Assembly (NCBI GenBank): GCA_963664325.2
Contig: CAXXDQ010000003.1
Location: 1,024,001 to 1,088,000, forward strand
Direction: 5' to 3'
From: Desulfomonilia bacterium
GTDB lineage: Bacteria > Desulfobacterota > Desulfomonilia > UBA1062
Length of the DNA stretch: 64,000 nucleotides
Below the pieces are notes generated by a model that was not told the origin of the DNA, ran no database searches, and saw only the letters and a list, made by a program, of their open reading frames with translations. The stretch's first letter is position 1. Each line of letters begins with the position of its first letter. The translations under genes and the position numbers were made by a program. Of this stretch, positions 32,142 through 62,682 are shown one piece after another.

Positions 32142-34244
32142 CTATATGCCAAATACGTGTCCGTTGACGGTCTCGCCGTTGTACACCACCGAGGTTGTTC
32201 CTGTTTGAGGTTCCTGGCCCACTATAGGAATGGAAACATTCGTGAACTTGCCGGAAAAATTGCCTGTGAAAGCAATCGTACCGGTTAATGTGCCGTTGCC
32301 GCTCAAACTGACCGTACCGCTTAACGTACCGTTGATGATAACTCTACGGGTCCCGCTGCAGTCAATGGTGCCTGTGGATACGATGTAGTTCTGCGAATCA
32401 ATGTAATTGGTAAATGTTTCATTGAGCAGGCCGCTCAGGCCGCTCTGTGTGATCCTGAAACGTACATTCCCGTCACCGCATGGGTCATAGTATGTCTCAT
32501 CAGTGCCCAGGCCCGGACTGGGATCCTGGAGCATGACTTTCATCATGGGATTCCCTGCCGTCAGTTTCGCGATGGTGAAAAATTCTTCAATGGTATAATC
32601 CACACGGCCCTGGTCGTAGCTGCTGAATTCGCTGATGGAGTACAGGGGCGAGGAACTGCTGGCCTTGACCTTGAAGTACCTGTAATTCTTGAAGGTGTTT
32701 ATAATCGGGCGCGCTTCTGCCTCATATGCGTTCATGGTCTCAAATGTCAGTGTTTCCGGCAGGGGCGGGAGGTCCAGCGTTTCGGTCTGCATGACGTCAT
32801 AGGATGTGGCCGGTGCGTTGACCGATCCTTCAAGAGTATATGTGCCGTCAGGTGTGGCTGAGCTGTATATGTAGTAAATTGTCGCATTCGGCACTGTATT
32901 CCAAGTGACCGTGACACGGTCGTTAAGATTGTGGTTAAGGAGCGGGTTCGTAACAGAGGTCAGTACTACATCCGTGGCCTGCACATTCTGCGGTGCCGGC
33001 AGCTGTTCCGCGCATGCCCCGCTGGAAACGACAAGCTGAACCGTCGACCCGGGCTGCACCATCGTTCCGGCGGCAGGGGACTGGCTGATCACACCGCCTT
33101 CGGACACGGTATTGCTGCAGGTCGTGCTCGTGCTGCAGACAAGTCCTGCGGACGAAACAATGTCGCAGCTCGTGGCCGTTGGCACCAGAACCTGACACAG
33201 ACCGGTTGATATTATGCGGTTGACTGTGGAACCGTATGATACGCCTGTCCCTGCCGGCGGGCTCAGGCCGATGAATTCTCCTTGAGACACCGTATTGCTG
33301 CAGTTAAGAACCGTATTGCAATGAAGGCCTGCTGCCTCGATTTCTTCGCATGTAGTTGCATCGGGTACTGTAGCCCCACACAGCCCGGTCGACAGCGACA
33401 GCTGAATAGTGGATCCGGGCTGGACCATGGAGTCTGCCACAGGCGACTGTGATATTACGGAACCTGCCGGTACGGTATTGCTGCAGTGTCTGGTCCTGCT
33501 GCACACGAAACCGGCGGCTTCGACATCCTCACAGCTTGTTACGATCGGTACCGGAACTTCCACGGTGCACGGGCCGGTAGAGATGACCATGCTGACCGTT
33601 GTGCCGGGCTGGACCATGGTGCCTGCCGGCGGGTCCTGGCTGATCACCGTACCGATGAGCGCGGTGTTGCTGCAGCTCTGGGTAGTATCGCATACGAGCC
33701 CGGCCTCTTCAATGTCAGCACAGCCTGTTGCGGCCGGTACGGATACTTCATTGGTCAGACACTCACCGCTTGAGAGTGTAAGTGTCACCGTTGCGCCGGC
33801 CGGTACGACCGTACCCGGTTCAGGAGACTGGCTGATGACCTCGCCTTGGGGCAGAGTTTCACTGCAGTTCTGGACAAGCGAGCATACCAGACCTGCGTTT
33901 ATGATCTCATCGCAGCTTGCGGCCGTCGGGACCGTCGATGGAGGCGAAGCCACCGTTACCTCCCACTCGCGGTCAGATGTCCCGAAACCTCCGAACTGGA
34001 CTTTTACACCCACATTATAGGTGCCGATCGGATGGTTTCCGAAAGTGAAACTGGCTTTCGTTTCACCCGTCTGCGCTACATCGTCTATATACCACTGTAT
34101 CGTACCGAACGCCCTGACTGAAAACTCCTGGTTTGTTCCCCAGGTCAAAGAAACCGGGCCTTCTTCCGGAGATACCGATAGAATACAACCTGACAATACT
34201 AGGAGCGGTATCATAATCCAAAATTGTATGAGTGCTCGCTTCAT
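32142..34244 (-). CDS. Lipoprotein: Ig-like N-domain, 5 Cys-rich PASTA-like repeats, FN3-like domain, C-terminal domain (copy 1)
   Basis: Lipobox LSGC; repeats VP...C....AGLxC....CSxTV..G.VISQSP.AGT.V..G.TV.L..S.G.C; PAPQNVQA...VTWN..YFKVKA. ATG 34244 after AGGAG. Confidence 0.88.
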   Translation of the reverse strand: MKRALIQFWIMIPLLVLSGCILSVSPEEGPVSLTWGTNQEFSVRAFGTIQWYIDDVAQTGETKASFTFGNHPIGTYNVGVKVQFGGFGTSDREWEVTVASPPSTVPTAASCDEIINAGLVCSLVQNCSETLPQGEVISQSPEPGTVVPAGATVTLTLSSGECLTNEVSVPAATGCADIEEAGLVCDTTQSCSNTALIGTVISQDPPAGTMVQPGTTVSMVISTGPCTVEVPVPIVTSCEDVEAAGFVCSRTRHCSNTVPAGSVISQSPVADSMVQPGSTIQLSLSTGLCGATVPDATTCEEIEAAGLHCNTVLNCSNTVSQGEFIGLSPPAGTGVSYGSTVNRIISTGLCQVLVPTATSCDIVSSAGLVCSTSTTCSNTVSEGGVISQSPAAGTMVQPGSTVQLVVSSGACAEQLPAPQNVQATDVVLTSVTNPLLNHNLNDRVTVTWNTVPNATIYYIYSSATPDGTYTLEGSVNAPATSYDVMQTETLDLPPLPETLTFETMNAYEAEARPIINTFKNYRYFKVKASSSSPLYSISEFSSYDQGRVDYTIEEFFTIAKLTAGNPMMKVMLQDPSPGLGTDETYYDPCGDGNVRFRITQSGLSGLLNETFTNYIDSQNYIVSTGTIDCSGTRRVIINGTLSGTVSLSGNGTLTGTIAFTGNFSGKFTNVSIPIVGQEPQTGTTSVVYNGETVNGHVFGI

Positions 34245-34355: not shown

Positions 34356-34372
34356 TGCGTTAGCATTATATC

Positions 34373-37205: not shown

Positions 37206-37215
37206 AGCTTACATG

Positions 37216-39318
37216 TTATAATCCGAATGCGTGGCCGTTAACCGTTTCGCCGTTGTACACCACCGAGGTTGTACCTGTTTGCGGTTCCTGATTTGAGATA
37301 GGAATGGAAATATTCGAGAACTTGCCGGCGAAATTGCCTGTGAATGCTAACGAACCTGTTAAAGTGCCGTTGCCGCTCATGTTGATCGAACCGCTGATAG
37401 TGCCATTCATGATCATTTTTCTGGTTCCGCTGCAGTCGATTGTGCCTGGAGGATTAATGTAGTTCTGCGAATCAACATAATTGTTAAACGCCACTGTAAG
37501 TAGTCCGCCCAGGCCCTGCATGGCGACTGTAAAACGGACACTCCCGTCTCCGCATGGATCATAGTAGCTCTCATCCGTACCCAGGCCCGGGCTCGGGTTC
37601 TGGAGCATGACCCTTGTCAGAGGGTTACCTGCTGTAATCTTCGCGACATTAAAGAATTCCTCCAGCGTATAATCCATGCGGCCCTGGTCATAGTTGCTCA
37701 GGTTGCTGTCGTTGTACAGGGGCGATGTGCTTAAGGCCTTGACCTTGAAATACCTGTAATTCTTGAAAGCGCTCAGGATCGGGCGCGCAACCAATTCATA
37801 AGCGTCAATGGCGGCTATTGTTAGTGGTGAGGGAAGGGGCGGAAGATTGAGCGTTTGAGTCTGCATTACATCATAGGATGTGGAAGGGGCGTCGACTGAG
37901 CCTGCGATCGTATAGGTTCCATCAGGGGTGTCGGAGCTGTATATGTTATAGGATGTCGCGTTAGGCACCGCGTTCCATGTGACCCTGATTCTGTCGTTGA
38001 GGTTGTGGTTGAGCAGGGGGTTGGTGACCGAGGTAAGCACGACATCCGAGGCCTGCACATTCTGCGGAGTAGGAAGCTGCTCCGCGCACGCCCCGCTGGA
38101 AAGAACAAGCTGGACCGTCGATCCGGGCGGCACCAGCGTGCCCGGTGCCGGGAGCTGGCTGATCACACCGCCTGCAGGAACAGTATTGCTGCAGGTCGTA
38201 CTAGTGCTGCAGACAAGGCCTGCGGCCGTCACGTCATTGCAGTTCGCAGCGTTCGGTACAGGCACCTGGCACGGTCCGGTCGAAAGTATCAGGTTGACTG
38301 TGGCACCGTAGGACAGGCCCGTTCCGGCCGGCGGGCTCAAGCCGATAAATCCGCCCTGGGGAACCGTATTGCTGCAGTAAAGCACCGTGTTGCAATGAAG
38401 GCCGGCGGCCTCGATCTCCTCGCAGGTCGTGACATCGGGTACTGTGGCTCCGCATAACCCGGTCGATATACCAAGCTGAATAGTGGAACCCCGCAGCACC
38501 ATGGTGCCAGGCTCCGGCGACTGGGTTACTACTGAACCTACGGGTACGGTATTGCTGCAGACCCTGGTCCGGCTGCAGACAAAGCCGGCCTGCTCGACGT
38601 CCTCGCAGCTCGTGACTATAGGCACAGGGACTTCTACTGTGCACGGCCCGGTTGAGATCACGAGGCTGACCGTTGTGCCAGGCTGAACCATGGTTCCGGC
38701 AGCCGGGGTCTGTCTGATCACCATGCCGACCGGTACCGATGGACTGCAGCTCTGTGTGGCGTCGCATACAAGTCCTGCAGCTTCAATACTGGCGCAGCCT
38801 AAAGCAGCCGGGACTTCGACCTCGTTCGAGCAGATGCCGCTTGAAAGCGTGAGCGTCACTGTGGCGCCTGCAGGAATGAAAAGGCCAGCTTCCGGGGCCT
38901 GGCTTATCACCGAGCCCTTGGGCGCCGTATCACTGCAGTTCTGCACAAGTGAGCACGCAAGGCCCGCGTTCACTATGTCATCGCAGCCCGTGGCGGAGGG
39001 TACCGCGGAGGGGGGAAGCTTCACAATGACGGTCCAGGCGCGCTCCACGGAAGAAGAGGCAAATGTGTTTCTCACCTTGACCGCGTAGGTCCCCAGGCCG
39101 TAGGTCAGACTTTTAAAAGTAAAGCCTGCTCCGGTCTCCCCGGTTACTGCGGCATCGTTTACATACCACTGGTAGGTCCCGAGCCCTGTGACCTTGAACG
39201 CCTGATTGTTGCCCCATGTCAGAGGAATGGTCCCCTCGGGCGGCGTGGTTGAAAAAATACACCCCGCCAAAACCAGAAGCGGTATCATGACCAGAAAGAG
39301 CTTTATATTCAGCTTCAT
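37216..39318 (-). CDS. Cys-rich PASTA-repeat lipoprotein (copy 2)
   Basis: Lipobox LAGC; same architecture as 32142..34244. Confidence 0.88.
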   Translation of the reverse strand: MKLNIKLFLVMIPLLVLAGCIFSTTPPEGTIPLTWGNNQAFKVTGLGTYQWYVNDAAVTGETGAGFTFKSLTYGLGTYAVKVRNTFASSSVERAWTVIVKLPPSAVPSATGCDDIVNAGLACSLVQNCSDTAPKGSVISQAPEAGLFIPAGATVTLTLSSGICSNEVEVPAALGCASIEAAGLVCDATQSCSPSVPVGMVIRQTPAAGTMVQPGTTVSLVISTGPCTVEVPVPIVTSCEDVEQAGFVCSRTRVCSNTVPVGSVVTQSPEPGTMVLRGSTIQLGISTGLCGATVPDVTTCEEIEAAGLHCNTVLYCSNTVPQGGFIGLSPPAGTGLSYGATVNLILSTGPCQVPVPNAANCNDVTAAGLVCSTSTTCSNTVPAGGVISQLPAPGTLVPPGSTVQLVLSSGACAEQLPTPQNVQASDVVLTSVTNPLLNHNLNDRIRVTWNAVPNATSYNIYSSDTPDGTYTIAGSVDAPSTSYDVMQTQTLNLPPLPSPLTIAAIDAYELVARPILSAFKNYRYFKVKALSTSPLYNDSNLSNYDQGRMDYTLEEFFNVAKITAGNPLTRVMLQNPSPGLGTDESYYDPCGDGSVRFTVAMQGLGGLLTVAFNNYVDSQNYINPPGTIDCSGTRKMIMNGTISGSINMSGNGTLTGSLAFTGNFAGKFSNISIPISNQEPQTGTTSVVYNGETVNGHAFGL
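38012..39303. repeat. About 1.29 kb direct repeat, copy A (copy B at 43078..44369)
   Basis: Constant offset of 5066 bp. Translations in the main and alternative frames are identical between copies. Confidence 0.88.
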
Positions 39319-50100: not shown

Positions 50101-53100
50101 GTTGGGCACATTGATTGTGACCGTGTCGGCGGAGCTTGTGTTGACTCCATCGGACACGATGAGGCTGAATACGTAATCGCCGGTCTTGTCCGGTGTGAAG
50201 CTCGGATTTGCGATGGCCGGGTTGGAGAGTGAGGCAAGGCTGCCGGCCGGGGCGCTTGTGATGGTCCACGCATAGGTGAGAGGCTGGGATTCAGGATCAG
50301 TGCCGCTACCGCTGAGCGTTGCCAGTGTGTTCCAGGTGACGGTCTGGTTGTCACCGGCCTCTGCCGTAGGTGCCGCGTTGTAGGCAGTTACGGTTACCGT
50401 GTCAGCGGTGCTTAAGTTGACGCCGTCGGACACGGTGAGGCTTATCACGTATGCGCCCATCTTATCCGGGGTGAAGCTCGGATTCACGATGGCCGGGTTG
50501 CTGAGAGCTACGGTGCTGCCTGCCGGACGCGATGTGATGGTCCACGCATAGGTGAGCGGTTCGCCTTCAGGATCATGGCTGGCACTGCCGTTGAGTGTTG
50601 CAATCGCGCCGTAGCCGAAGAGGACGTTCTGGTCCGCACCGGCATTGGCTATGGGCGCCGTGTTGGGCACCGTGATGGTCATGGTATCCGGGGTGCTGAA
50701 ATTGACTCCGTCGCTAACGACAAGGCTCATTACATACGCGCCTGACTTGTCCGGTGTGAAGGTCGGGTTTGCTATGGCCGCGTTGGAGAGTGCCGCCACG
50801 CTGCCGGCCGGACGTGAGGTGATGGTCCACGCGTATGTGAGAGGCTGGGATTCAGGATCGGTTCCGCTACCGCTGAGCGTTGCCAGCGTGTTCCATGTGA
50901 CCGTCTGGTTGTCACCGGCATTGGCTGTCGGGGCCGCGTTGTAGGCTGTGATTGTTACCGTGTCAGCGGCGCTTGTGTTGACGCCGTCGGATACGGTTAG
51001 GCTCATGACGTAAGCGCCCAGTTTATCCGGTACAAAGGTCGGGTTCGCGATGGCCGGGTTGGAAAGTGCCGCAACGCTGCCGGCCGGTGCGCTGGTGATA
51101 GTCCATGCATAGGTCAGAGGCTGGGATTCAGGATCGTTGCCGCTGCCGCTGAGCGTTGCCGCCGCGCCGTAACCGAAGAGGACGTTCTGATTTGCTCCGG
51201 CCTCTGCCGTCGGTACGAGGTTACCGGACGTGATTGTCATCGTGTCAGGAGCACTTGAGTGGACTCCGTCGTTCACGACGAGGCTCATCACATATGAACC
51301 CATCTTGTCAGGTGTGAATGTCGGGTTTGCGATGGACGTGTTGGAAAGTGCCGCGGTACTGCCGGCCGGTGCGCTGGTTATGGTCCACGCATAGGTGAGA
51401 GGCTGGGACTCTGGATCAATGCCGCTGCCGCTCAGTGTCACGGATGCACCGTAACCGAAGAGGACGCTCTGATCCGCTCCGGCGTTAGCCGTTGGTGCTA
51501 GGTTGCCGGCTGTGACTGATACCGTGTCGGCTGCGCTCAGGTTGACTCCGTCGGATACGACCAGGCTGATTACATACACGCCCTGCTTGTCAGGCGTTAA
51601 GGTCGGATTCACGATGGCCGGATTACTGAGTGCAGCAAGGCTGCCTGAAGGAGCGCTGGTGATGGTCCACGCATAAGTCAGCGGGTCGTTCTCCGGGTCA
51701 TGGCTGGCGCTCCCGTTGAGTGTTGCCGTTGCGCCGTAGCCGAAGAGGATGTTCTGGTCACTGCCTGCTTCCGCTGTTGGTGCCGTGTTGGGTACCGTAA
51801 TTGTTACCGTGTCGGCGGTGCTGAAATTGACGCCGTCGGACACGATGAGGCTCATTACATACGCACCGGTCTTATCCGGTGTGAAGGCCGGGTTGGCGAT
51901 GGCCGCATTGGAGAGCGCCGCATGGCTTCCTGCAGGTGCGCTGGATATGGTCCATGCGTAGGTAAGCGGCTGGGCTTCAGGATCGGTCCCGCTGCCGTTC
52001 AGAGTTGCCAGGGTGTTCCATGCAACCGTCTGGTTCTCACCGGCCTCGGCCGTCGGGGCCACGTTGTAGGCGGTTATGGTGACTGCATCCGGGGCGCTCA
52101 GGTTGACGCCGTCGGATACGACCAGGCTGATCAGGTACGTGCCCTTCTTATCGGGCGTCAGTGTCGGGGAGACCGAGCTCGGGTTAACCAGTGCGGCGCT
52201 GCTGCCGGACGGTGCAGAAACAATCGTCCAGGTATAGGTCAGCGCGTCGTTGTCCGGGTCTGAGCTGCCGCTCCCGTTAAGTGTTGCGGTGGCGCCCAGG
52301 CCGAAGAATATGCTCTGGTCCTCGCCCGCTTCAGCAGTGGGCGCGCGGTTGGGTGCGGTGATGGTCATGGTGTCCGCGGAGCTGAAATTGACTCCATCGG
52401 AAACGATGAGGCTCATTACATAGGCACCCGGCTTATCCGGCGTGAAGCTCGGATTTGCAATGGCTGCGTTGGAGAGTACCGCCACACTGCCTGCCGGGGC
52501 GCTGGTTATGGTCCACGCATAGGTGAGGGGCTGGGATTCAGGATCGGTGCCGCTCCCGTTGAGTGTCGCCATTGTGCCCACGTTGAGAGGATTGATATCC
52601 GCGCCGGCATTGGCCGTTGGTGCCAGGTTGTAGGCGGTTATTGTTACCGTGTCCGCAGCGCTTACATTGACCCCGTCGGATACGGTGAGGCTCAGCACAT
52701 ACGCGCCTTTCTTGTCAGGCGTGAAACTCGGTGCAATTGCTGCCGGATCTGAAAGTGCGGCGCTGCTGCCGACCGGGGCGCTGGTGATGGTCCATGAGTA
52801 GGTCAGCGGATCGCCTTCGGGATCTGAGCTACCGCTCCCGTTAAGGGTTACCGAGGCTCCGAGGCCGAAGAAGATGCTCTGGTCCGCACCGGCTTCGGCC
52901 GTAGGTGCCGTATTGGGAACGGTGATGGTGACAGTATCGCTGGCGCTGTTGACCCCGTCGGATACGGTTAGGGTAAGTACATACGCGCCCGTCTTGTTCG
53001 GAGTGAAGGTCGGGTTTGCGATGGCCGGGTTGGAGAGTGCAGCGGTGCTGCCTGTCGGAGCTGTGGTGATAGCCCAAGCAAAGGTGAGCGGCTGGGCTTC

Positions 53101-56100
53101 GGGATCGGTGCCGCTGCCGTTCAGCGTGGCAAGGGTGTTCCAGGCCACGGTCTGGTTGTCGCCGGCCTCCGCGGTGGGCGGCTGGTTGGTTGCCGTGATC
53201 GTGAGGATATCTGCGGCGCTGTACATGTCGCCGTCGAACACGACCAGGCTGACCGTGTACACGCCCGCCTTATCCGGCAGGAATGTCGGATTCACGATAG
53301 ATGAGCTTGAAAGAGCGGCCGTACTTCCTGCCGGACGGGAGGTAATGGTCCAGGAATAAGTCAGCGGCTGGCTTTCAGGGTCTGAGCTCAGGCTGCCGTC
53401 GAGATTCGCCAGAGCGCCGTAACCATAGATAAGGCTGATATCAGCACCTGCTTCCGCTACAGGCGCATTGTTGGTTACGTTGACTGTCAGAGTATCGGCG
53501 GTGCTTGTCATGACCCCGTCGGACACGACAAGGCTGAGCTCATATACGCCTGACTTGTCCGCTGTAAAGGTCGGATTTGCGATAGCAGCGTTGCTTAGAA
53601 CTGCGGCGCTGCCTGCCGGCTTCGAGATCATGGTCCACGCAAAGGAGAGAGGATAGCCTTCAGGGTCTGTACTGCCGCTTCCGTTCAGGGCTACTGTCTG
53701 GCCGTGAGCCGCGTTTATATCGGTGCCTGCATTGGCCGTAGGTGCCTGATTGGCTGCGGTTACCGTGAGGGTATCGGCGGAGCTGAAGAGATATCCGTCG
53801 CTTACGACAAGGCTGATGACATAAACACCTTGTATATCCGGGATGAAGCTGGCGTTGACATTGGCGGGATTGGTTATCGCAGCAAGGCTGCCCGATGGTG
53901 CCGATATGACTGTCCATGCATAGGTCAATGATGCGCCATCCGGGTCGGAGCTGGCGCTTCCGTCAAGGTTCGCTGCAGCGCCGTAACCGAAGATGATGCT
54001 CTGATCCGATCCGGCCTCGGCCGTTGGCGGATGGTTTGTTACGGTAATGGTTATCGTGTCGGCGGAGCTGAAGAAGGCCCCGTCGGATACGATAAGGCTG
54101 ATCACATAAACGCCTACCAGATCAGGGCTGAAGGTCGGATTCACAAGGCCCGGATTGGTTATGATGGCGCTGCTGCCGGCCGGGGCCGAAGTGATGGTCC
54201 AGGACCATGATATTATCATGGTTCCATTGGGGTCATAGCTTGCGCTGCCGTCAAGAGATGCGGTCTTGCCGGGGAAGCCGAGACTCTGGTCCGCTCCGGC
54301 ATTAGCCACGGGCATGTCGCCGACTGTTAGGGTGAGCGCATCGGCCGGGCTGTAATCGTACCCGTCAAACACGACCAGGGTAATTACATACACGCCTTTC
54401 TTGTCCGGCGTCAGGCTCGGGGTTGCAGTAGAAGGTCCTGTCAGTGCGGCAACGCTGCCGGACGGGGCTGTGGCGATTTCCCATGTATAGGAGAGAGGCA
54501 GGCCTGACGGGGCATGGCTTGCGGTCCCGTCGAAGTTGGCCGTTACGCCGGGGAAGCCGATTTGCTGGTTCGGCCCGGCCTCGGCCGTTGGTCCGGTATT
54601 GACTGCCGTGATGGTAAGGCTGTCAGCGGCGCTGTACATATCTCCGTCATAAACGACAAGGCTGATCACATAGGTGCCTGGCAGGTCCGGGGTGATGGAA
54701 GGATTCACAATGTTGGAGCCGGGAAGAAGTGCTGCATGGCTGCCGTAAGGTGCGCTGGTGATCGTCCACTCATAGGAGAGCGGTGAGGCTTCAGGGTCTG
54801 AGCTTGCGCTTCCGTCAAGGGTTATGGTCTCGCCGGAACCGAATGTGAAGCTGTAGTCAGAGCCCGCTTCGGCCGTAGGTGCGTTGTTGTATACGTTAAT
54901 CTTCATCGTATCCTGGATGCTGTTTGCTTCGCCGTCATTAACGACAAGGCCGATCACGTACTCGCCTTTCCTGTCGGGCAGGAAGGTCGGATTTGCGATT
55001 GCGGTGTTCGATAGCGCGGCAGTGCTGCCGGCCGGGGCCGAGATGATCGTCCAGGCATAGGTCAGCGGGTCGCTGTCCAGGTCGGTTCCGCTCCCGAGGA
55101 GCTGGGCCGTCTTGTTGGGGAAGGCTATGGTGATGTCATCGCCGGCCTCGGCCACGGGTGCGTGGTTTGTGGTAGTGATGACCACCTCATCCGGTGCGCT
55201 TACAATGCCTTCGCTGCATGTCACGATAAGCTGGATGGTATATATGCCCTTCCTGCTTGGCGTGAAAACCGGATTGACGATTGAAGCATTTGAAAGCTGG
55301 CCGATGCCGGTGTCAGGACCGGAAGTTATTGTCCAGGCAAAACTCAGCGAATCGCTGTCCGGGTCTGAGCTGGCGCTGCCGTCGAGCTGGGCCGAAGCGC
55401 CGAATTCGATGGAGGCGTCCGCGCCTGCGTTGGCCACGGGAACGTTGCTGGAGCAGGTTACTATGACCGTGTCCTCGGCGGTAAGGTCGCCGTCGCTCAC
55501 AGTCAGTTTCATTACATATGCGCCCCTTATATCAGGTGTGAAGGTCGGATTTGCGATGGCCGCGTTCGATAGAGCTGCAAGACTGCCGGCCGGGGCCGAG
55601 GTTATCTCCCAGGCAAAAGTCAGGGTGTCGCCGTCCGGGTCTGAGCTCCCGCTCCCGTTGAGTGTGGCGGTTCCACCCAGGGGGACGGTGACATCAGCGC
55701 CGGCATTGGCAACAGGCGCTGTATTGGTTACAGTGATTGTCAGCGTATCCTTGCCGCTGGTAAGAAGGCCGTCGCTCACGATCAGGCCTATTACATAAAC
55801 ACCCGTCTTGTCGGGAGTGAATGTCGGTGTGGCGCTGGTGGGATTTAATATTACGGAGGTGCTGCCGGTTGGTTTCGTGTCGATGGTCCACGCATAGGTC
55901 AGTACGGTTTCAGGGTCCGGATCGGAGCTGCCTGTCCCGTCAAGATGGACTGTCCGGAAGAGGTGGACGGTCTGGTCAGGGCCGGCTTCGGCCGTAGGCG
56001 GACGGTTGCCGGTAGAGGCATTGATGGTGACGGTATCCGTAGCTGTCTTCTCGCCGTCGCTTACTATAAGGGTGACTGTGTATCCGCCCACTAAATCAGG

Positions 56101-56610
56101 CGTAAAGGTCGGATTGACTATATAGGGATCGTCGATCGTGGCGGTGCTGCCTGCCGGCGCAGTGGTGATCGACCAGGTGAAGGTCAGAGGCTGGCTTTCC
56201 GGGTCAGAGCTGGAGCTGCCGTTGAGATGAACCGGGATGCTTGGTGTAGCGTTTTGATCAGGACCTGCATTGGCAATCGGCGGCAGGTTGGTGACCACGT
56301 TCACGTTCCATTGCTTTACGATGATCTTGCCGGAAAGCGAGTCCTTGGTCTGCACCTTCAATATGAAGATGCCCCCGTCCGCTTCAAGGGCCGTGTATTT
56401 ATAAGAGGCCGTTATGGCGCCGGGTATGACCACATTATTTTTGGACCACTCATAAGGCCCGTTCATGAAACCAGACACCGTAAAGGTCTTGCTGGCTCCT
56501 ACGTTCAGTGTGATGGGCACTGATGTTGAAGGGCTGGTGGAAATGATACAGCCGCTCAACCATAGGGCCAAAATGGAAAACATGACCAGCAACATTGAAT
56601 TTCTTCTCAT
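47128..56610 (-). CDS. Giant lipoprotein (about 3160 aa) with 31 PKD-like repeats and variable tip; putative adhesin
   Basis: ATG after GAGGAGG; lipobox LSGC; 31 PxAxAG-initiated units of about 93 aa counted by eye; ends DDISVTIWN. Confidence 0.9.
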   Translation of the reverse strand: MRRNSMLLVMFSILALWLSGCIISTSPSTSVPITLNVGASKTFTVSGFMNGPYEWSKNNVVIPGAITASYKYTALEADGGIFILKVQTKDSLSGKIIVKQWNVNVVTNLPPIANAGPDQNATPSIPVHLNGSSSSDPESQPLTFTWSITTAPAGSTATIDDPYIVNPTFTPDLVGGYTVTLIVSDGEKTATDTVTINASTGNRPPTAEAGPDQTVHLFRTVHLDGTGSSDPDPETVLTYAWTIDTKPTGSTSVILNPTSATPTFTPDKTGVYVIGLIVSDGLLTSGKDTLTITVTNTAPVANAGADVTVPLGGTATLNGSGSSDPDGDTLTFAWEITSAPAGSLAALSNAAIANPTFTPDIRGAYVMKLTVSDGDLTAEDTVIVTCSSNVPVANAGADASIEFGASAQLDGSASSDPDSDSLSFAWTITSGPDTGIGQLSNASIVNPVFTPSRKGIYTIQLIVTCSEGIVSAPDEVVITTTNHAPVAEAGDDITIAFPNKTAQLLGSGTDLDSDPLTYAWTIISAPAGSTAALSNTAIANPTFLPDRKGEYVIGLVVNDGEANSIQDTMKINVYNNAPTAEAGSDYSFTFGSGETITLDGSASSDPEASPLSYEWTITSAPYGSHAALLPGSNIVNPSITPDLPGTYVISLVVYDGDMYSAADSLTITAVNTGPTAEAGPNQQIGFPGVTANFDGTASHAPSGLPLSYTWEIATAPSGSVAALTGPSTATPSLTPDKKGVYVITLVVFDGYDYSPADALTLTVGDMPVANAGADQSLGFPGKTASLDGSASYDPNGTMIISWSWTITSAPAGSSAIITNPGLVNPTFSPDLVGVYVISLIVSDGAFFSSADTITITVTNHPPTAEAGSDQSIIFGYGAAANLDGSASSDPDGASLTYAWTVISAPSGSLAAITNPANVNASFIPDIQGVYVISLVVSDGYLFSSADTLTVTAANQAPTANAGTDINAAHGQTVALNGSGSTDPEGYPLSFAWTMISKPAGSAAVLSNAAIANPTFTADKSGVYELSLVVSDGVMTSTADTLTVNVTNNAPVAEAGADISLIYGYGALANLDGSLSSDPESQPLTYSWTITSRPAGSTAALSSSSIVNPTFLPDKAGVYTVSLVVFDGDMYSAADILTITATNQPPTAEAGDNQTVAWNTLATLNGSGTDPEAQPLTFAWAITTAPTGSTAALSNPAIANPTFTPNKTGAYVLTLTVSDGVNSASDTVTITVPNTAPTAEAGADQSIFFGLGASVTLNGSGSSDPEGDPLTYSWTITSAPVGSSAALSDPAAIAPSFTPDKKGAYVLSLTVSDGVNVSAADTVTITAYNLAPTANAGADINPLNVGTMATLNGSGTDPESQPLTYAWTITSAPAGSVAVLSNAAIANPSFTPDKPGAYVMSLIVSDGVNFSSADTMTITAPNRAPTAEAGEDQSIFFGLGATATLNGSGSSDPDNDALTYTWTIVSAPSGSSAALVNPSSVSPTLTPDKKGTYLISLVVSDGVNLSAPDAVTITAYNVAPTAEAGENQTVAWNTLATLNGSGTDPEAQPLTYAWTISSAPAGSHAALSNAAIANPAFTPDKTGAYVMSLIVSDGVNFSTADTVTITVPNTAPTAEAGSDQNILFGYGATATLNGSASHDPENDPLTYAWTITSAPSGSLAALSNPAIVNPTLTPDKQGVYVISLVVSDGVNLSAADTVSVTAGNLAPTANAGADQSVLFGYGASVTLSGSGIDPESQPLTYAWTITSAPAGSTAALSNTSIANPTFTPDKMGSYVMSLVVNDGVHSSAPDTMTITSGNLVPTAEAGANQNVLFGYGAAATLSGSGNDPESQPLTYAWTITSAPAGSVAALSNPAIANPTFVPDKLGAYVMSLTVSDGVNTSAADTVTITAYNAAPTANAGDNQTVTWNTLATLSGSGTDPESQPLTYAWTITSRPAGSVAALSNAAIANPTFTPDKSGAYVMSLVVSDGVNFSTPDTMTITVPNTAPIANAGADQNVLFGYGAIATLNGSASHDPEGEPLTYAWTITSRPAGSTVALSNPAIVNPSFTPDKMGAYVISLTVSDGVNLSTADTVTVTAYNAAPTAEAGDNQTVTWNTLATLSGSGTDPESQPLTYAWTITSAPAGSLASLSNPAIANPSFTPDKTGDYVFSLIVSDGVNTSSADTVTINVPNNAPTAEAGPNQNVLFGYGAVVTLSGSGTDPENQTLTYAWTITTRPAGSTVALSNPAIAGPSFIPDRAGEYVLSLVVSDGTNFSSADTLTVTAGNAAPTADAGANQDVVWNTLATLNGNGSFDPEGQPLSFAWTITSAPTGSTATLSGAATVSPTFTPDKSGQYVISLVVNDGVNSSAPDTVTITVANNAPTAEAGSDQSIFFGLGEAATLNGSGSHDPEGDPLTYHWTITSAPIGSAAALSDVNAISPSLTPDMKGVYLISLTVSDGVNVSAADSVTITAYNEAPTAEAGVDQIVVWNTLATLNGSGIDPESQPLTFAWTITSAPAGSVAALSNAAIANPTFTPDKSGAYVMSLTVNDGVNASSADTMTITVPNEAPTAEAGSDQSIFFGTGLTATLNGSGSHDPENETLIYTWAIVSAPSGSSAGLSNVNAIAPTLTPDRKGAYLISLTVSDGVNVSAADFVTITAYNDPPTAEAGPDQNPVYKGQTASLSGSGVDPESQPLYPTWSVISAPSGSTAQPVSTTIWNPTFTPDKKGAFTLRLSVFDGVNTTTDTMTITVPNRAPTAEAGANQSFVNGGTASLSGSGSSDPDSDTLTYAWSITGRPSGSTATLSNAAIVNPTFTPDKKGVYTIQLIVNDGTVSSAADTMTVTATNRAPVAEAGTNQSVYKNTLVNLSGSGSSDADGDALTYAWSVTARPSGSTAALSSTTIVNPTFRPDKSGSYTIQLIVNDGETNSAADTMTITASNRAPTAEAGTGNSALLYANRAVTLNGNGSSDPDGDTLTYAWTQTAGTTVTITNPNTMTPSFTIATPGTYTFSLVVNDGEASSAADTVTFTTSQATYTTGWESSLNDSNGVAWTAYKGSNMGTVGVNGNQKRSGSNGYQISDCNNFLGNCGSGYASVTNYAGKFVISMSAWFYTPVAEKFPADLAGIFEGTTERVHYGGNNSWTQYSWAPNRVVTDITLRMNGTGGATYISHSMYSDDISVTIWN

Positions 56611-56741
56611 CGGATCCTCCTCAATTTTGTATGCATGCAACCATAACGGATGCATGCCCTTTTAAATTCCCTGAAACCCCTCTAACCAAGTTATATATAT
56701 TGAATAAATAATTCCTTATTTCTTATCTCTTGCAAATCAAT

Positions 56742-56784: not shown

Positions 56785-59700
56785 TTATCTCCAGACTATG
56801 TACGTGATGTCATCGAAGAACATTTCGTCGGCACCCGAATATATATAGTCATAACCGGCAAAGGCTATGGTTGTGGCCTCACCGTTGCAGTTATAAGGTG
56901 TCGAGCTGGTATCCCCTCTGTAGGCCCAGGTGTTCTTGGAGAAAGTAGGGGCATCATCAGGGCCGATCTCTTTCCAGGCTACACCGTCCTTCAGGAGTTT
57001 TGTATTAATGCTGGAGCCTCCGAATATATTCGGATACCAGTTCAGCCATAAGCTAACTGAAACCAGATAGGCCGGGCTGCCGCCGTTTAAGTTGGTGGTA
57101 ACTATGGTCGTGTTGGATGAGCCGGAACTTATATTCGAGTGTATGTCGAAGGAATAGCTGGCGCTATGACTTCTATCACTGGAGATTCTCCTGTCCACAG
57201 TTCCGATTGCTGTAGTGATGGCCCAGTCGCCCATGCTGTTGTCATCCCAGTTCTTGGTGACTGTTACAAGGGCCGCCGTAGTGAGGGTGACTGTGCTGGC
57301 GCCGCTGCTTACCGTACCGTCATTCACGGTCAGGCTGATCACGTAGGTGCCCGGCCTGGTGAGGTTGGCGGTCGGTGTCGCGCTCGTTGGATTGGTAATG
57401 GTTGCGGTATTTCCGCTCGTCACTCCGGAGTATGGCGTGAAGGATGTGATCGACCAGGAGTAGGTCAGCGAGTCGCCGTCCGGGTCAGAGCTGCCGCCGC
57501 CATTGAGGCCGACCGCGCGACCGGCGTATGCTATGTTGCTGACGGCAGAACCGGCATTGGCCGTAGGCGCCCTGTTGGGTGTGGTGATGATCATGGTATC
57601 GGCAACGCTGGTGTTAACCCCGTCGGACACGACCAGGCTTAAAGTATAGGAACCTTTCTTGTCCGGCGTGAATGTCGGATTGAAGATGTTAATGTTGGAA
57701 GGCTGTGCAGTGCTTCCTGACGGCCGTGCGGTGACTGACCATGTAGGTGTCAGGGGCTGGCCTTCATCATCAAAACCGCTCCCGTTCAGTGTCGTTGCTA
57801 CACCTACGTACAGAGGGTTGACATCAGCGCCGGCATTGGCCGTCGGGGCTGCATTGTAGAACATGATGCTGACCGTGTCGGCTGTGCTTGCGTTGACCCC
57901 GTCGTTCACAACCAGGCTGAGCACATACGAACCCTTCACGGTCGGTGTAAAGACCGGACCCGCTATGTTGGCATTGGACAGCTGGCTGATGCTGGTGTTC
58001 GGTCCGGAGGTGATGGTCCACGCGTAGGTGAGCGGCTGGGATTCCGGGTCGGTGCCGCTGCCGGCAAGTGTTGCCGTGGCGCCTGAACCGGAGAAGAAGA
58101 CGCTCTGGTTCGAGCCGGCTTCGGCCGTTGGTGCCACGTTGTAGGCCGTGATTGTTACCGCATCGGATGCGCTCAGGTTGACACCATCTGATACGACCAG
58201 GGTGATCAGGTACGCGCCCTTCTTATCCGGGGTAAGGGTCGGGTGTATCGCGTGGATATCGGAAAGGGAAGCGCTGCTGCCTGACGGTGAGGATACGATG
58301 GCCCAGGTGTAGGTCAGGGTATCGCCCTCCGGGTCGTGACTGGCGCTGCCGTCAAGCGTGGCCGTCAGGCCTGTGCCGAAAAAGATGTTCTGGTCAGGCC
58401 CTGCTTCGGCAGTCGGCGCATTGTTGGGCACGGTGATTGTTAACGTATCGGTTACGGTGTTGACCGCGTCGGATACGGAGAGAGTGAGCACGTACGAGCC
58501 TGACTTGTCAGGTGTGAAGCTCGGGGTAAGGGTGGACGCGCCGGAAAGTGCGGCGGTGCTGCCGAACGGTGCGCTGGTGATGGTCCACACATAGGTCATG
58601 GGCTTTGATTCAGGATCGGTGGCGGTCCCGCTGAGCGTGGCCAGCGTGTTCCAGGTAACGGTCTGATTGGAACCGGCATCTATCGTCGGCGCCACGTTGT
58701 AGGCCGTTATGGTGACCGCATCGGCGGCGCTTACATTGACCCCGTCGGATACGGTGAGGGTGATCAGATATGTACCCTTCTTGTCAGGTGTCAAGCTTGG
58801 GGATACAGCAGCCGGGTCGGAAAGTGCTGCTGCGCTGCCCACAGGGGCGCTGGTGATGGTCCACGAGTAGGTCAGCGGGTCGCCTTCGGGATCGGAGCTT
58901 GCGCTCCCATTAAGGGTGGCCGTTTCACCCAGGCCGAAGAAGATGTTCTGATCGGCACCTGCTTCCGCTGTCGGCGCATTGTTGGGTACGGTTATGGTTA
59001 CTGTATCAGTTGCGGTGTTTACACCGTCGGATACGGTCAGTGTGATTACGTATGCCCCGGTCTTGTTCGGGGTGAAAGAAGGAGATGCTGTGGCCGCGCC
59101 GGAAAGTGTTGCTGTGCTGCCTGTCGGGGCCGATGTGATAACCCATGCATAGGTGATCGGGTACGCCTCGGGATCGAAGCTACCGCTGCCGTTGAGCGTG
59201 GCCAGGGTGTTCCAGGCGACGGTCTGATTGTCGCCGGCCTCGGCATGGGGTGCCGCATTAGCTGCAGTGATGGTGAGGGTATCCGGGGTGCTGTACGTAT
59301 CACCATCGTAAACGACAAGACTGACTGTGTACTCGCCCGCCTTATCCGGAAGGAAGGTCGGATTGACTATTGTTGAGCTGGAAAGTGCAGCCGTGCTGCC
59401 TGCCGGACGGGCGGTGATAGTCCATGCATAGGTCAGAGGCTGGCTTTCCGGATCGGAACTCAGGCTCCCGTCGAGGTGCGCCAGGGCGCCGTAACCGAAG
59501 ATAAGGCTGATGTCCGCACCGGCATTGGCTATTGGCGCATTGTTGCTAACGATAACGGTTACCGTATCCGCGGCGCTGGTCATGACTCCGTCGGAAACGA
59601 CAAGGCTGATCACATAGGACCCCGACTTATCTGCGATGAAGGTCGGATTTACGATGGCCGGGTTGGAAAGTGCAGCCGTGCTTCCTGACGGACGAGAAGT

Positions 59701-62682
59701 GATGGTCCACGCATAAGTGAGAGAATGGCCTTCAGGGTCAGTGCTGCCGCTGCCGTTAAGGGCCACGGTCTGGCCGTGGGCTGCGTTTATATCGGCTCCG
59801 GCATTGGCCGTGGGCGCCTGGTTGGTTGCGGTTATTGTAAGGGTGTCGGCGGCGCTGAAGAGATAGCCGTCGCTTACGATAAGGCGGATAACATACACAC
59901 CCTGCAAGGCCGGAATGAAAGCGGGATTGACTATGGCCGCGTTGGAGAACTGGGCAATGCTGGTGCTTGGTCCGGAGGCTACCGTCCATGCATAGGTGAG
60001 CGTTGCGCCGTCCGCGTCGGAGCTGGCGCTTCCGTCAAGGTTGGCTGCGGCGCCGTAGCCGAAGATGACGCTCTGATCGGCACCGGCTTCTGCAACGGGC
60101 TGATGGTTGATAACTGTAATGGTTACCGTATCGGCGGTGCTGAAGAAGGCCCCGTCGGAAACGACAAGGCTGATCACGTAAACACCCACCTTGTCAGGCG
60201 AGAATGTCGGATTCACAAGGCCCGGGTTGGTTATTATGGCGGTGCTGCCGGCCGGATGCGAAGTGATAGTCCAGGACCATGAGATTATCATGGTTCCGTT
60301 GGGGTCATAGCTCGCGCTTCCGTCGAGGAATGCGGTTTTTCCTGGGAAGCCGAGGCTCTGGTCAGGGCCGGCATTGGCCACGGGCATATCACCTACGGTA
60401 AGGGTGACCTCGTCCGCCGGGCTGTAATCGAACCCGTCAAACACGATCAGAGTGATCCTGTATACGCCCTTCTTGTCGGGGGCCAGGCTCGGATTTACGA
60501 TGGCGGTATTGGATAGTGCTGCGGTACTGCCTGACGGTGCAGAAACGATTTCCCAGGTATATGAGAGCGGAAGGCCTGAAGGGGCATGGCTGGCGATCCC
60601 GTCAAAATAAGCCGTTATGCCGGGGAAGCCGATATGCTGATCAGGTCCGGCCTCGGCCGTTGGACCGGTATTGATGGCAGTGATGGTAACGCTGTCCGCG
60701 GCGCTGTACAGATCGCCGTCAAACACGATGAGGCTGATCACATAGGTGCCAGGTATGTCGGGTGTTATGGAAGGATTCACGATGTCCGAGCCGGGAAGAA
60801 GCGCTGCCGTGCTGCCGTAAGGTGCGCTGGTTATGGTCCACGAGTAGGCCAGCGTGGTATCGGGGTCTGGATCAAAACTGGCGCTTCCGTTAAGATGAAC
60901 CGTCTCGCCGGTGCCGAAAGTAAAGCTGTAATCAGAGCCTGCCTCGGCTGTCGGTGCGTTGTTGTATACGTTTATAGTGAGTGTATCCTCAATACTGTTT
61001 ACCTCACCGTCATTTACAATGAGGCCGATCACATACGGGCCTTTCATGTCGGGCAGGAATGTCGGATTTGTAATAGTCGGGCTGGAAAGCTCCGCAATAC
61101 TGTCTTCCGGACGCGAGATGATTGTCCACTGGTAGGTCAGCGGGTCGCTGTCCGCATCGGTTCCGCTTCCGAGAAGCTGGACTGTCTTATTGGGGAAGCC
61201 GATGGTGATGTCGCCGCCGGCCTCTGCAACAGGGGCGTGGTTTGTGGTTGTGATGACAACTTCATCAGGTGCACTGGCAAGGCCTTCGCTGTCGGTCACA
61301 ATCAGGCTGAGCGTATAGATGCCTTTCCTGCTGGGTGTGAAGACCGGATTAACGATTGTGTTATTGGAAAGCTGGCCGATGCCGGTATCCGGTCCGGACG
61401 TAATCGTCCAGGCAAAACTCAGAGAGTCGCCGTCCGGGTCTGAGCTGGCGCTTCCGTTGAGATTGGCTGTCTGGCCGAATTCGATGGTGGCATTCGTTCC
61501 TGCGTTGGCGACTGGCACGTTATTGGAACAGGTTACTATAACAGTGTCTTCAGAGGTAAGGTCGCCGTCGCTTACAGTCAGTTTAAATCCATATGCACCC
61601 CTTACATCAGGATTGAAGGTTGGTGCCGGGCTGGATGCATCGGAAAGAATAGCCAAGCTGCCGGTCGGCCGTGAGGTGATTACCCAGGCATATGTCAGAA
61701 TGTCGCCGTCCGGGTCTGAGCTTCCGCTCCCGTTTAGGTTTGCCGTTGAGCCGAACAGGACGGTGATATCAGAGCCGGCCTCGGCAATTGGTGCGGTGTT
61801 GGCTACAGTTATTGTAAGTGTATCCTTGGAGCTGGTCAATTCGCCGTCACTTACTATAAGTCCCAGCACGTAAGTACCTGTCTTGTCTGGTGTGAATGTC
61901 GGCGTTGCGCTGGTGGGGTCTGCTATCCCGGCGGTGCTGCCTTCCGGTTTTGTATCGACTGTCCAGGCATAGGTTAGAGGCTGGTGTTCGGGGTCGAAGC
62001 TCGCAGTCCCGTCAAGAGAAGCTGTCCTGGAGAGGTGGACGGCCTGGTCTGGGCCGGCATTCGCAGTAGGTGGATGGTTACCGATAAAGGAATTAATGGT
62101 GACGGTATCTGTAGCTGTTTTCTCGCCGTCACTTACGATAAGCGTGATTGTGTAACCGCCCTCTAGATCTGGTGTGAAGGTCGGATTGACGATATATGGA
62201 TCGTCAATAGTGGCAGTGCTTCCTCCTGGTGCGGTGGTAATAGACCAGGTATAGGACAGAGGCTGGCTTTCAGGGTCTGAACTGGCGCTGCCGTCAAGCG
62301 TAACCAGGGTGCCGGGAGCAACGCTTTGATCTGGGCCCGCATTGGCTGTGGGCGGCAGGTTTGCTACAACATGCACGTTCCATTGCTTTACAAGTATCTT
62401 GCCGGATAGCGAGTCTTTGGTCTGCACCTTCAGTACGAAAATGCCCGCATCCGCCTCAAGAGCCGTATAGCTATAGGATGCCTTTATAGCCCCGGGAATT
62501 ACAATATCGTTCTTGGACCATTCATATGGACCATTCATTAGACCGGTCACGGAAAAGGCCTTTGATGCGCCTACATTGAGTGTGACAGGTGCTGTCGTTG
62601 AAGGACTTGTAGAAATGATACAACCACTCAACCAAAGAGCCATAAGCGAAAACATGGCTAACAATATTGCATTTCTCTTCAT
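56785..62682 (-). CDS. Large lipoprotein (about 1965 aa) with 18 PKD-like repeats and variable tip; putative adhesin
   Basis: Lipobox LSGC; 18 repeats counted by eye; ends DDITYIVWR. Confidence 0.9.
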   Translation of the reverse strand: MKRNAILLAMFSLMALWLSGCIISTSPSTTAPVTLNVGASKAFSVTGLMNGPYEWSKNDIVIPGAIKASYSYTALEADAGIFVLKVQTKDSLSGKILVKQWNVHVVANLPPTANAGPDQSVAPGTLVTLDGSASSDPESQPLSYTWSITTAPGGSTATIDDPYIVNPTFTPDLEGGYTITLIVSDGEKTATDTVTINSFIGNHPPTANAGPDQAVHLSRTASLDGTASFDPEHQPLTYAWTVDTKPEGSTAGIADPTSATPTFTPDKTGTYVLGLIVSDGELTSSKDTLTITVANTAPIAEAGSDITVLFGSTANLNGSGSSDPDGDILTYAWVITSRPTGSLAILSDASSPAPTFNPDVRGAYGFKLTVSDGDLTSEDTVIVTCSNNVPVANAGTNATIEFGQTANLNGSASSDPDGDSLSFAWTITSGPDTGIGQLSNNTIVNPVFTPSRKGIYTLSLIVTDSEGLASAPDEVVITTTNHAPVAEAGGDITIGFPNKTVQLLGSGTDADSDPLTYQWTIISRPEDSIAELSSPTITNPTFLPDMKGPYVIGLIVNDGEVNSIEDTLTINVYNNAPTAEAGSDYSFTFGTGETVHLNGSASFDPDPDTTLAYSWTITSAPYGSTAALLPGSDIVNPSITPDIPGTYVISLIVFDGDLYSAADSVTITAINTGPTAEAGPDQHIGFPGITAYFDGIASHAPSGLPLSYTWEIVSAPSGSTAALSNTAIVNPSLAPDKKGVYRITLIVFDGFDYSPADEVTLTVGDMPVANAGPDQSLGFPGKTAFLDGSASYDPNGTMIISWSWTITSHPAGSTAIITNPGLVNPTFSPDKVGVYVISLVVSDGAFFSTADTVTITVINHQPVAEAGADQSVIFGYGAAANLDGSASSDADGATLTYAWTVASGPSTSIAQFSNAAIVNPAFIPALQGVYVIRLIVSDGYLFSAADTLTITATNQAPTANAGADINAAHGQTVALNGSGSTDPEGHSLTYAWTITSRPSGSTAALSNPAIVNPTFIADKSGSYVISLVVSDGVMTSAADTVTVIVSNNAPIANAGADISLIFGYGALAHLDGSLSSDPESQPLTYAWTITARPAGSTAALSSSTIVNPTFLPDKAGEYTVSLVVYDGDTYSTPDTLTITAANAAPHAEAGDNQTVAWNTLATLNGSGSFDPEAYPITYAWVITSAPTGSTATLSGAATASPSFTPNKTGAYVITLTVSDGVNTATDTVTITVPNNAPTAEAGADQNIFFGLGETATLNGSASSDPEGDPLTYSWTITSAPVGSAAALSDPAAVSPSLTPDKKGTYLITLTVSDGVNVSAADAVTITAYNVAPTIDAGSNQTVTWNTLATLSGTATDPESKPMTYVWTITSAPFGSTAALSGASTLTPSFTPDKSGSYVLTLSVSDAVNTVTDTLTITVPNNAPTAEAGPDQNIFFGTGLTATLDGSASHDPEGDTLTYTWAIVSSPSGSSASLSDIHAIHPTLTPDKKGAYLITLVVSDGVNLSASDAVTITAYNVAPTAEAGSNQSVFFSGSGATATLAGSGTDPESQPLTYAWTITSGPNTSISQLSNANIAGPVFTPTVKGSYVLSLVVNDGVNASTADTVSIMFYNAAPTANAGADVNPLYVGVATTLNGSGFDDEGQPLTPTWSVTARPSGSTAQPSNINIFNPTFTPDKKGSYTLSLVVSDGVNTSVADTMIITTPNRAPTANAGSAVSNIAYAGRAVGLNGGGSSDPDGDSLTYSWSITSFTPYSGVTSGNTATITNPTSATPTANLTRPGTYVISLTVNDGTVSSGASTVTLTTAALVTVTKNWDDNSMGDWAITTAIGTVDRRISSDRSHSASYSFDIHSNISSGSSNTTIVTTNLNGGSPAYLVSVSLWLNWYPNIFGGSSINTKLLKDGVAWKEIGPDDAPTFSKNTWAYRGDTSSTPYNCNGEATTIAFAGYDYIYSGADEMFFDDITYIVWR

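Follow-up and report, generated by a model that had tools for sequence, protein, structure and literature searches.

Stalk-and-head surface lipoproteins are well studied in gut Bacteroides and poorly known in other two-membrane bacteria. Among the former, SGBP-B of the xyloglucan locus and SusE/SusF are portrayed in PMC4850273 as having a lipidated N-terminus and a tandem Ig-like stalk that keeps one distal, C-terminal glycan-binding domain clear of the membrane. A different arrangement is outlined in PMC6372800 for TraA/TraB of Myxococcus: a polymorphic lectin-like domain on the cysteine-rich stalk of TraA sets self-recognition, and its operon partner TraB is invariant, has a cell-wall-binding domain and is required yet stands outside specificity. 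The present report concerns an array of eight lipoprotein genes, on the minus strand at positions 32142–62682 of a 64,000-nucleotide stretch of a Desulfomonilia genome (contig CAXXDQ010000003.1, positions 1,024,001 to 1,088,000). This whole stretch is called ‘the window’, and positions are counted within it.

An earlier reading of this DNA alone (the original prediction) had taken the array for a dedicated cell-surface display system, in which proteins with stalks of PKD repeats may work as cognate pairs with cysteine-rich PASTA proteins. On balance, we lean towards outer-membrane lipoproteins, each made of an Ig-like anchor, a rigid stalk and a binding head, that would display adhesins or lectins at the surface and diversify their heads by cassette exchange. 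The anchor–stalk–head design is already known in kind; what is new is a family of lipoproteins with a four-cysteine PASTA stalk and a head of no recognised kind, encoded strictly behind short PKD-stalk genes, together with discrete, exchangeable jelly-roll heads and a conserved motif after the lipidated cysteine.

Results

Eight modular lipoproteins in one array

The window was scanned for open reading frames (ORFs), for Pfam domains under curated cut-offs, and by BLASTP between the encoded proteins. Eight genes share the minus strand in the transcription order A, B, C1+D1, C2+D2, C3+D3. Gene A (56785–62682) encodes 1965 residues from an ATG at 62682, with a lipobox, an Ig-like anchor module, 18 PKD repeats and a jelly-roll head, and gene B (47128–56655), the true start of which is probably Met16, encodes a lipoprotein of 3175 residues with the anchor module, 31 PKD repeats and the head type commonest in the genus. 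The anchor module, six PKD repeats and a head also make up each of three shorter lipoproteins: C1 (44496–46994, 832 residues, head at about 44499–44993), C2 (39437–41914, 825 residues, head of a type found nowhere else in the genus) and C3 (34373–36799, 808 residues). Behind these lie, respectively, the PASTA lipoprotein genes D1 (42270–44384, 704 residues, five four-cysteine PASTA repeats), D2 (37216–39318, 700 residues) and D3 (32142–34280, 712 residues, true start probably Met13).

K319L-like PKD stretches (Pfam PF22352, PF18911) numbered 18 in A, 31 in B and six in each of C1, C2 and C3, with scores of 220–1104 bits against a cut-off of 27, which places all five among PKD-repeat proteins; five PASTA stretches (PF03793) in each of D1, D2 and D3 scored 154–167 bits against 23.2, and these belong among PASTA proteins. 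Intergenic gaps measure 129 bp after A, 133 bp after B, 92–118 bp within the C–D units and 355–416 bp between units, the stop codons of successive D genes lying 5054 and 5074 bp apart. Between the array genes there is no same-strand ORF of at least 150 residues, bar two 177-residue ORFs nested in D1 and D2, and the remaining ORFs of this size in the array are opposite-strand frames inside the genes. The ORF list and the Pfam search gave no enzyme or secretion gene within the array, which consists of modular lipoproteins with binding-type domains.

In each of the eight proteins, a charged, hydrophobic leader precedes a lipobox (LSGC, LAGC or FSGC), and all eight fit the signal peptidase II lipoprotein pattern (charged n-region, hydrophobic h-region, lipobox L/F-[SA]-G-C), so that lipidation is predicted. 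Over the first ~105 residues past the signal peptide, PKD and PASTA proteins share 30–37% identity in full-length alignments (BLASTP E 1e-8 to 7e-15), the alignment being weaker or partial for D3; in all eight, the Ig-like module begins right at the lipobox cysteine. Differences lie mainly at the C-terminus: PKD stalks are 54–74% identical, against 17–31% for most heads, and among the D proteins the PASTA stalk is 74–100% identical, against 57–70% for the last 200 residues. The original prediction had described this same layout (eight co-oriented lipoprotein genes with 18 and 31 PKD repeats and then three units, of about 5.06 kb, of six PKD plus five PASTA repeats), along with the shared lipobox and Ig N-module, the C-terminal concentration of difference and the lack of enzyme or secretion genes in the array, and on each of these points the scans agree with it.

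Heads are exchanged independently of stalks

Comparison was made between the array's own genome (G000) and three genus mates (G001–G003), individual loci of the set being designated L013, L014 and L015. A profile of the head region found exactly nine heads in the own genome, all of them the ends of full PKD-stalk genes, and 5, 6 and 7 matches in the other three (15 strong, and 3 weak in short ORFs). There was no match in the 57 other relatives searched, leaving heads present in 4/61 genomes. When the 24 strong heads were typed by single linkage at 50% identity they fell into 10 discrete types, five of them seen once; of 276 pairwise identities, 228 were below 35%, 44 were at least 50%, and only 4 lay between. 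The commonest type (9/24 heads) sat on proteins of 661 to 3175 residues, and the type of C3 was found also on one gene in each of G001–G003 (75–79% identical).

Head and stalk follow separate histories even within the array. The stalks of A and B share 74% identity over 1800 residues and their heads 17%, while the heads of A and C1 are of one type (~70% identical) on stalks that share 56% identity and differ three-fold in length. At the DNA level, the three C–D units show 60–94% identity across the PKD repeats and 26–44% over the head and the C-to-D gap. The sharpest case is that of L013 and L014, orthologous loci of two species: their DNA is 88% identical over 5.3 kb from upstream through the stalk, and again 88% identical over 4.9 kb from the gene end onward, yet the intervening 565 bp of head cannot be aligned, and the proteins drop from 83–100% to about 30% identity. 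Between L014 and L015, on the other hand, the heads are more alike (74–91%) than the stalks (65–81%). Because conserved flanks surround an unalignable head in the first pair, and heads outdo stalks in the second, the pattern bears the signature of cassette replacement, putatively via recombination in the conserved flanks. The PKD repeats are 67–80% identical in DNA, and therefore there has been no recent homogenisation of repeats.

Two sources of programmed variation were considered and set aside. Silent head cassettes are ruled out by the nine heads of the genome all being ends of full genes. A diversity-generating retroelement was rejected in view of the discreteness of the head types and a search, confined to the array, that found no reverse transcriptase.

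The heads are predicted jelly rolls

The last ~150 residues of A, B and C1–C3 had no Pfam match even at E 10, and none of four head types matched the cleaved-adhesin family PF07675 at E up to 10. The heads align with one another and with the ends of other PKD-stalk proteins, and four residues (three Trp and one Asp) are invariant. An AlphaFold head model, built from 15 sequences, was all-beta (predicted local distance difference test, pLDDT, 85.2; predicted template modelling score, pTM, 0.83). Its best structural match was the Kgp K1 cleaved-adhesin domain (4itc_A, Z 14.7, root-mean-square deviation (rmsd) 2.6 Å over 140 residues), and further matches were carbohydrate-binding modules (CBMs), namely TmCBM61 (Z 13.4), CBM27 and CBM22, and MAM domains (Z about 12). 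Foldseek placed CBM16, 61, 22 and 27 at the top (E 6e-6 to 1e-4, TM 0.46–0.58), and an Atlas feature search gave sub-threshold leads only: CBM_4_9, galactose-binding-like and cleaved adhesin (score 0.86). As modelled, the head is a lectin- or adhesin-type jelly roll, a common fold that names no ligand by itself.

Other family names proposed for the PKD proteins were dismissed. Pfam PA14, Sde0182_C and similar had 0 qualifying stretches (one Sde0182_C stretch appeared in C3), and the NCBIfam matches to a myxosortase-dependent M36 peptidase, MalA, HypBA2 and MtsC were to PKD repeats and fell far below cut-offs, so that they do not denote membership. PADLOC returned no matches to the PKD proteins.

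PASTA genes lie behind short PKD genes

Every full-length PASTA gene in the four genus genomes (16/16; 7 in the own genome and 9 in G001–G003) lies directly behind a head-bearing PKD gene on the same strand, across a gap of about 90–130 bp, and the adjacency that the original prediction would have examined in related genomes is kept in all four. Five further loci in metagenome-assembled genomes show the same order, these being probably the same genomes. No description of the pairing was met in literature searches, and NCBIfam and PADLOC gave only domain-level matches under cut-offs, in keeping with the earlier remark that the pairing was not recognised as a described system. A second locus, on contig C4 of the own genome, holds four triplets of a PKD-stalk protein, a PASTA protein (53–58% identical to D1) and an RCC1 protein; this third gene, with four PKD repeats and an RCC1 propeller, starts 9–15 bp after the PASTA gene, and it is with the RCC1 size class that the PASTA subtype varies. 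An 869-residue cytoplasmic multi-PAS histidine kinase is encoded between the second and third triplets (G000:C4:760472-763081, L056).

That the pairs are cognate, as had been suggested, is not supported. Head type shifts without change in the PASTA protein: between L013 and L014 the PASTA C-termini are 92% identical and the heads 32%, and between c4_1 and L013/L014 the figures are 80% and 27–29%. Eight of the 24 head genes (proteins of 1107 and 1965–3175 residues) have no PASTA neighbour, the long-stalk genes being unpartnered, and the same head type occurs both with and without one. A genome of another genus, G014, encodes a 641-residue PASTA lipoprotein of the family, with four repeats, that has no adjacent PKD gene in a genome with no head gene. 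Over 11 pairs, the head correlated little with the last 200 residues of its partner (Spearman 0.28, pairs not independent). A complex prediction for D1 residues 412–704 with the C1 head scored 0.00 and counts neither way.

Terminator-like hairpins lie after B (47110–47084, strong), D1 and D3 (32127–32110), and the scan gave no minus-strand terminator-like site in the C-to-D gaps. We read C and D as likely two-gene operons, in which a co-transcribed D would be a constant companion rather than a specificity-matched one.

The two kinds of repeat can also meet in one chain. In G013, which belongs to another genus of the family, locus L023 (G013:C141) encodes a 687-residue lipoprotein in which two four-cysteine PASTA repeats and a further, ordinary one are joined to three PKD repeats, and because of this fusion both PKD and PASTA are taken as stalk parts in this bacterial family. 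The C-terminal tail of the L023 protein is Asp-rich and dockerin- or EF-hand-like. Elsewhere, L024 (G027:C59) encodes a 937-residue secreted protein in which N-terminal YSNG-type repeats precede about eight cysteine-free PASTA repeats, an instance of PASTA as a long stalk.

The PASTA lipoproteins and an identical tract in D1 and D2

A model of D1 built by AlphaFold from 26 family members (mean pLDDT 82.7) comprises an Ig anchor (residues 20–100), five PASTA domains (about 108–410), an Fn3 domain with a helical insert (412–550; Z 12.3 to 3mpc_B) and a C-terminal beta domain (about 580–700), in which two helices accompany a beta part of eight strands. In fold, the row of PASTA domains is like the PrkC and PknB ectodomains (Foldseek, 3py9 at E 4.8e-10 and 2kui at E 3e-7). 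Each repeat holds four cysteines, all 20 being invariant or at least 90% conserved in the 26 members, and the C-terminal domain has a further two that are invariant; those of the repeats may act as disulfide staples.

Searching with D1 residues 412–704 among 5.8 billion proteins yielded about 27 clusters of ~700-residue proteins, seven from the own genome, and the remaining matches covered the Fn3 part only. The sole name given at source within the family is the automatic ‘beta-lactam-binding protein with PASTA domain’. Full-length PASTA lipoproteins occurred in 5/61 genomes, and in the searches made the family was restricted to one genus and a single stray member outside it. Kinase affiliations do not extend beyond the PASTA part: matches to the Stk1/PknB family NF033483 scored 119–128 bits where the cut-off is 450, over profile positions 379–563 alone (the PASTA part), Pfam found no kinase domain in the D proteins, and PADLOC matches to the PD-T4-6 anti-phage kinase were restricted to the PASTA tail (profile positions about 353–490 of 486–547).

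An exact tract of 1292 bp is shared by D1 (43078–44369, minus strand) and D2 (38012–39303, minus strand). It extends from codon 6 to about codon 436, taking in the anchor module with the whole set of five PASTA repeats, and breaks off sharply at either end; we read it as a recent gene conversion or duplication. One short-read contig matches the tract exactly in span, and in three runs of a single sample it was covered about twice as deeply as its neighbours, as two true copies would be, although these runs may be the assembly's own source and the depth is then not independent support.

The anchor module is widespread in the lineage

A profile of the N-module, built from the eight array proteins, found 46 ORFs in the own genome, and in 45/46 the module starts exactly at the cysteine, with a signal peptide before it. 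Straight after the lipidated cysteine comes a motif, C-I-x-S-x-[ST]-P, leaving no flexible tether ahead of the first beta strand; among 33 sequences printed in full, Ile stood at +2 in 31, Ser at +4 in 26, Thr/Ser at +6 in 29 and Pro at +7 in 32. This stretch is a candidate signal, specific to the lineage, for sorting lipoproteins to the surface. As modelled in D1, the N-module is a seven-strand Ig-like sandwich with its first strand starting one residue past the cysteine, and a fold search matched it to Ig-like domains (Z about 10, rmsd 2.2 Å over 79 residues).

What the module carries is varied. Among 20 further members scanned, four had a PKD stalk and no named head, two had VWA heads and three had FGE-sulfatase-like heads (one of them on a PKD stalk), and cadherin-like, Fn3-rich and MopE-like parts were also seen; RCC1 is a further head kind on the anchor module in the own genome. 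‘Dedicated’, as the system had been called, is accordingly too strong a word: because the N-module is shared by 46 ORFs with such diverse heads, it is a general device of the lineage and not private to the array. The array is one branch of a lineage-specific family whose members join a lipid anchor to an Ig module, a stalk and a non-catalytic head. The N-module recurs in two further lipoprotein genes 2–3 kb past the window ends (G000:C3:1020824-1021720 and 1090087-1090950), of which one has a VWA head and one a single PKD domain.

Surroundings of the array

Upstream of gene A lies a divergent intergenic region of ~1 kb (62683–63693), AT-rich with a guanine-plus-cytosine (GC) fraction of 0.39, beyond which begins a divergent, plus-strand lipoprotein gene (63694–64000) with lipobox FTAC and without the family N-module. 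The region contains a direct repeat of ~27 bp, core GTAGCGCGCA, in two copies 58 bp apart (62764–62848), the nearer about 80 bp upstream of the A start codon. The genome holds just four occurrences of the core, of which these two alone have such a context; the repeat may be an operator.

One flank of the array holds ordinary cytoplasmic genes, for a DUF169 protein, an old-yellow-enzyme-type reductase and Fe-S proteins. Elsewhere in the window are genes for a 755-residue regulator with two GerE/LuxR DNA-binding domains (19732–21999, minus), beside which an AT-rich stretch (22000–26000, GC 0.41) holds a NosD-like beta-helix ORF; an IS110-family transposase (7829–8884, minus) in a low-GC patch (GC 0.44); and, both unrelated to the array, a 640-residue linalool dehydratase/isomerase-like protein (9997–11919, minus) and the selenocysteine synthase SelA (15928–17286, plus).

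Discussion

The genome encodes BamA and LolA, from which it follows that the organism has two membranes. We picture the array proteins as lipoproteins of the outer membrane. Once the signal peptide had been cleaved, the lipidated cysteine would lead straight into the Ig-like anchor module, followed by a rigid stalk of repeated domains and, at the end, a non-catalytic binding head. On the PKD proteins, a lectin- or adhesin-type jelly roll of ~150 residues would be borne on stalks of 6, 18 or 31 repeats, the differing lengths setting how far from the cell one head type stands, and homologous recombination, flanked on one side by the conserved final PKD repeat and on the other by the gene downstream, would shift head types between stalks and genomes. 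The PASTA proteins, in which five disulfide-stapled PASTA repeats and Fn3 would form the stalk of a conserved head of no recognised kind, would be co-transcribed with the short PKD proteins as their constant companion. The likely job would be to reach out over several distances and bind external glycans or other cell surfaces, in adhesion or aggregation.

Surface display and external binding are suggested by the non-catalytic, binding-type heads, by stalks of up to 31 repeats, by rapid head exchange, and by the extracellular type of the other heads on the same anchor. The display system of the original prediction stands in so far as the array consists of modular lipoproteins with binding-type domains; exposure at the outer surface we infer. 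Several observations weigh against this reading. The comparative counts all rest on four genomes, related and of a single genus, and lack independence. We identified no export factor for surface lipoproteins, and near the array there is no transporter, glycosidase or other gene hinting at a ligand. Unrelated CBM, MAM and phage tail domains all score within 2–3 Z units on the head. The C-terminal domain of D1 has no sequence match in Pfam (E 10), PDB sequences (E 10) or the Atlas, and fold searches with whole D1 gave lists taken up by matches to the Fn3, PASTA and Ig parts and barely covered the fold of this domain. Promoter and terminator scans gave no excess over shuffled sequences (18 terminator-like sites, where the controls averaged 13.4 with a standard deviation of 5.0). 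PASTA domains, finally, are best known for binding peptidoglycan or muropeptides, and a periplasmic role would fit too.

The last point leads to the main rival, in which the lipoproteins face the periplasm as an envelope scaffold and PASTA domains, perhaps with CBM-like heads, hold peptidoglycan. The match of the PASTA domains to the peptidoglycan-sensing kinases PknB and PrkC speaks for it, as do two membranes and a Lol pathway with no surface-export factor found, but stalks of 18 and 31 PKD repeats would far exceed the width of the periplasm; a ligand that does not vary, as the peptidoglycan of the cell itself, would not be expected to go with discrete, rapidly exchanged head types; and extracellular binding proteins are where heads of the VWA, FGE/C-type-lectin-like and cadherin-like kinds, which share this anchor, are typically found. 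We consider a scaffold of this kind unlikely. Binding between neighbours is harder still to uphold. That each PKD protein binds its PASTA neighbour via matched variable parts, as a two-chain surface receptor, would fit the strict adjacency (16/16, with gaps of 92–118 bp in the array), and also the equal count of eight modules in each chain (Ig, six PKD and head; Ig, five PASTA, Fn3 and head), which would put the heads at similar heights; head identity is weakly correlated with identity of the partner's Fn3 (Spearman 0.44, pairs not independent). Against matched parts stand heads that change beside constant partners (92% versus 32% between L013 and L014, 80% versus 29% between c4_1 and L013), one head type with and without a PASTA neighbour, the 8/24 unpartnered head genes, and the PASTA lipoprotein of G014 in a genome with no head gene, which together make such receptor pairs distinctly improbable.

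Variability itself admits two more explanations. The variable heads could bind like heads on neighbouring cells, in polymorphic recognition of self or partner with PASTA as an invariant helper, by analogy with TraA/TraB. Discrete head types, five of ten seen once, and heads replaced at orthologous loci beside an invariant operon partner would suit this, MAM domains (known for homophilic contacts) are among the best fold matches, and the Myxococcus precedent, as presented in PMC6372800, has a variable lectin-like domain setting specificity and a required partner outside recognition. A recognition locus, however, usually has one allele per cell, whereas this one genome has nine heads of seven types, and domain order and anchor are unlike those of TraA. 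It is rather doubtful, then, that the jelly-roll heads are specificity determinants, like-with-like or towards a partner surface, with the stalk setting reach and PASTA an invariant co-receptor for the short stalks; if they were, the array would be a functional analogue of TraA/TraB from unrelated parts, in an uncultured two-membrane bacterium, and a new kin- or partner-recognition system. Alternatively, the heads might have no ligand of their own and difference alone might matter, as an escape from phages or grazers, for which cassette-like replacement, gene conversion (the 1292-bp identical tract) and the variation of copy number and gene order between species of the genus could be cited. 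Since the own genome has no silent head cassettes (9/9 heads end full genes), the array has no invertible promoter or recombinase, and conserved fold and tryptophans in all heads are what a working binding domain would show, this is the least probable of the explanations. Display of binding heads at the outer surface is the account that we favour.

Whatever the ligand, the locus shows, as a clean natural case, how head cassettes are exchanged while stalks are conserved, and the edges of recombination are sharp. PASTA as a putatively disulfide-stapled lipoprotein stalk broadens the use of this domain past penicillin-binding proteins and kinases, the post-cysteine motif in 46 proteins may be a sorting signal for surface lipoproteins, and a lipid-anchored protein of 3175 residues raises the question of how one so large would cross the outer membrane.

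Comparison with known systems

Polymorphic toxins of the contact-dependent inhibition (CDI) or Rhs kind are a poor likeness, the variable end here being a binding-type jelly roll and the downstream lipoprotein of 700 residues failing to co-vary with it. As regards TraA/TraB, no PA14 (0 qualifying Pfam stretches), no MYXO-CTERM and no beta-barrel/OmpA partner was found; the PKD proteins end at the last jelly-roll strand, with no C-terminal tag. The array differs further in its C-terminal variable part and its many paralogues per genome, and no sequence relationship was found. With the PASTA regions of PknB, PrkC and Stk1 the D proteins share a linear PASTA string, and PrkC too ends in an Ig-like domain (title of 3py9), but the D proteins have no kinase or transmembrane helix, are predicted to be lipid-anchored in a two-membrane host and carry four conserved cysteines per repeat. 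The cleaved-adhesin (haemagglutinin) domains of the Lys-gingipain Kgp of Porphyromonas gingivalis resemble the array head in fold at 11% identity, although the array proteins lack a protease domain and any type IX secretion system (T9SS) context.

It is in Bacteroides that the closest working model is to be found, by analogy, in proteins of the SGBP-B, SusE and SusF type. Those belong to another phylum and have another anchor module, no sequence relationship was found between them and the array, and the 27 window ORFs scanned include no TonB-dependent receptor, SusD or glycoside hydrolase; the array, for its part, has stalks of up to 31 repeats, cassette heads and a PASTA companion. The two nevertheless have in common a lipid anchor, an Ig-like stalk and a distal, C-terminal domain of CBM-like fold, and by the same analogy the heads of the array may bind glycans.

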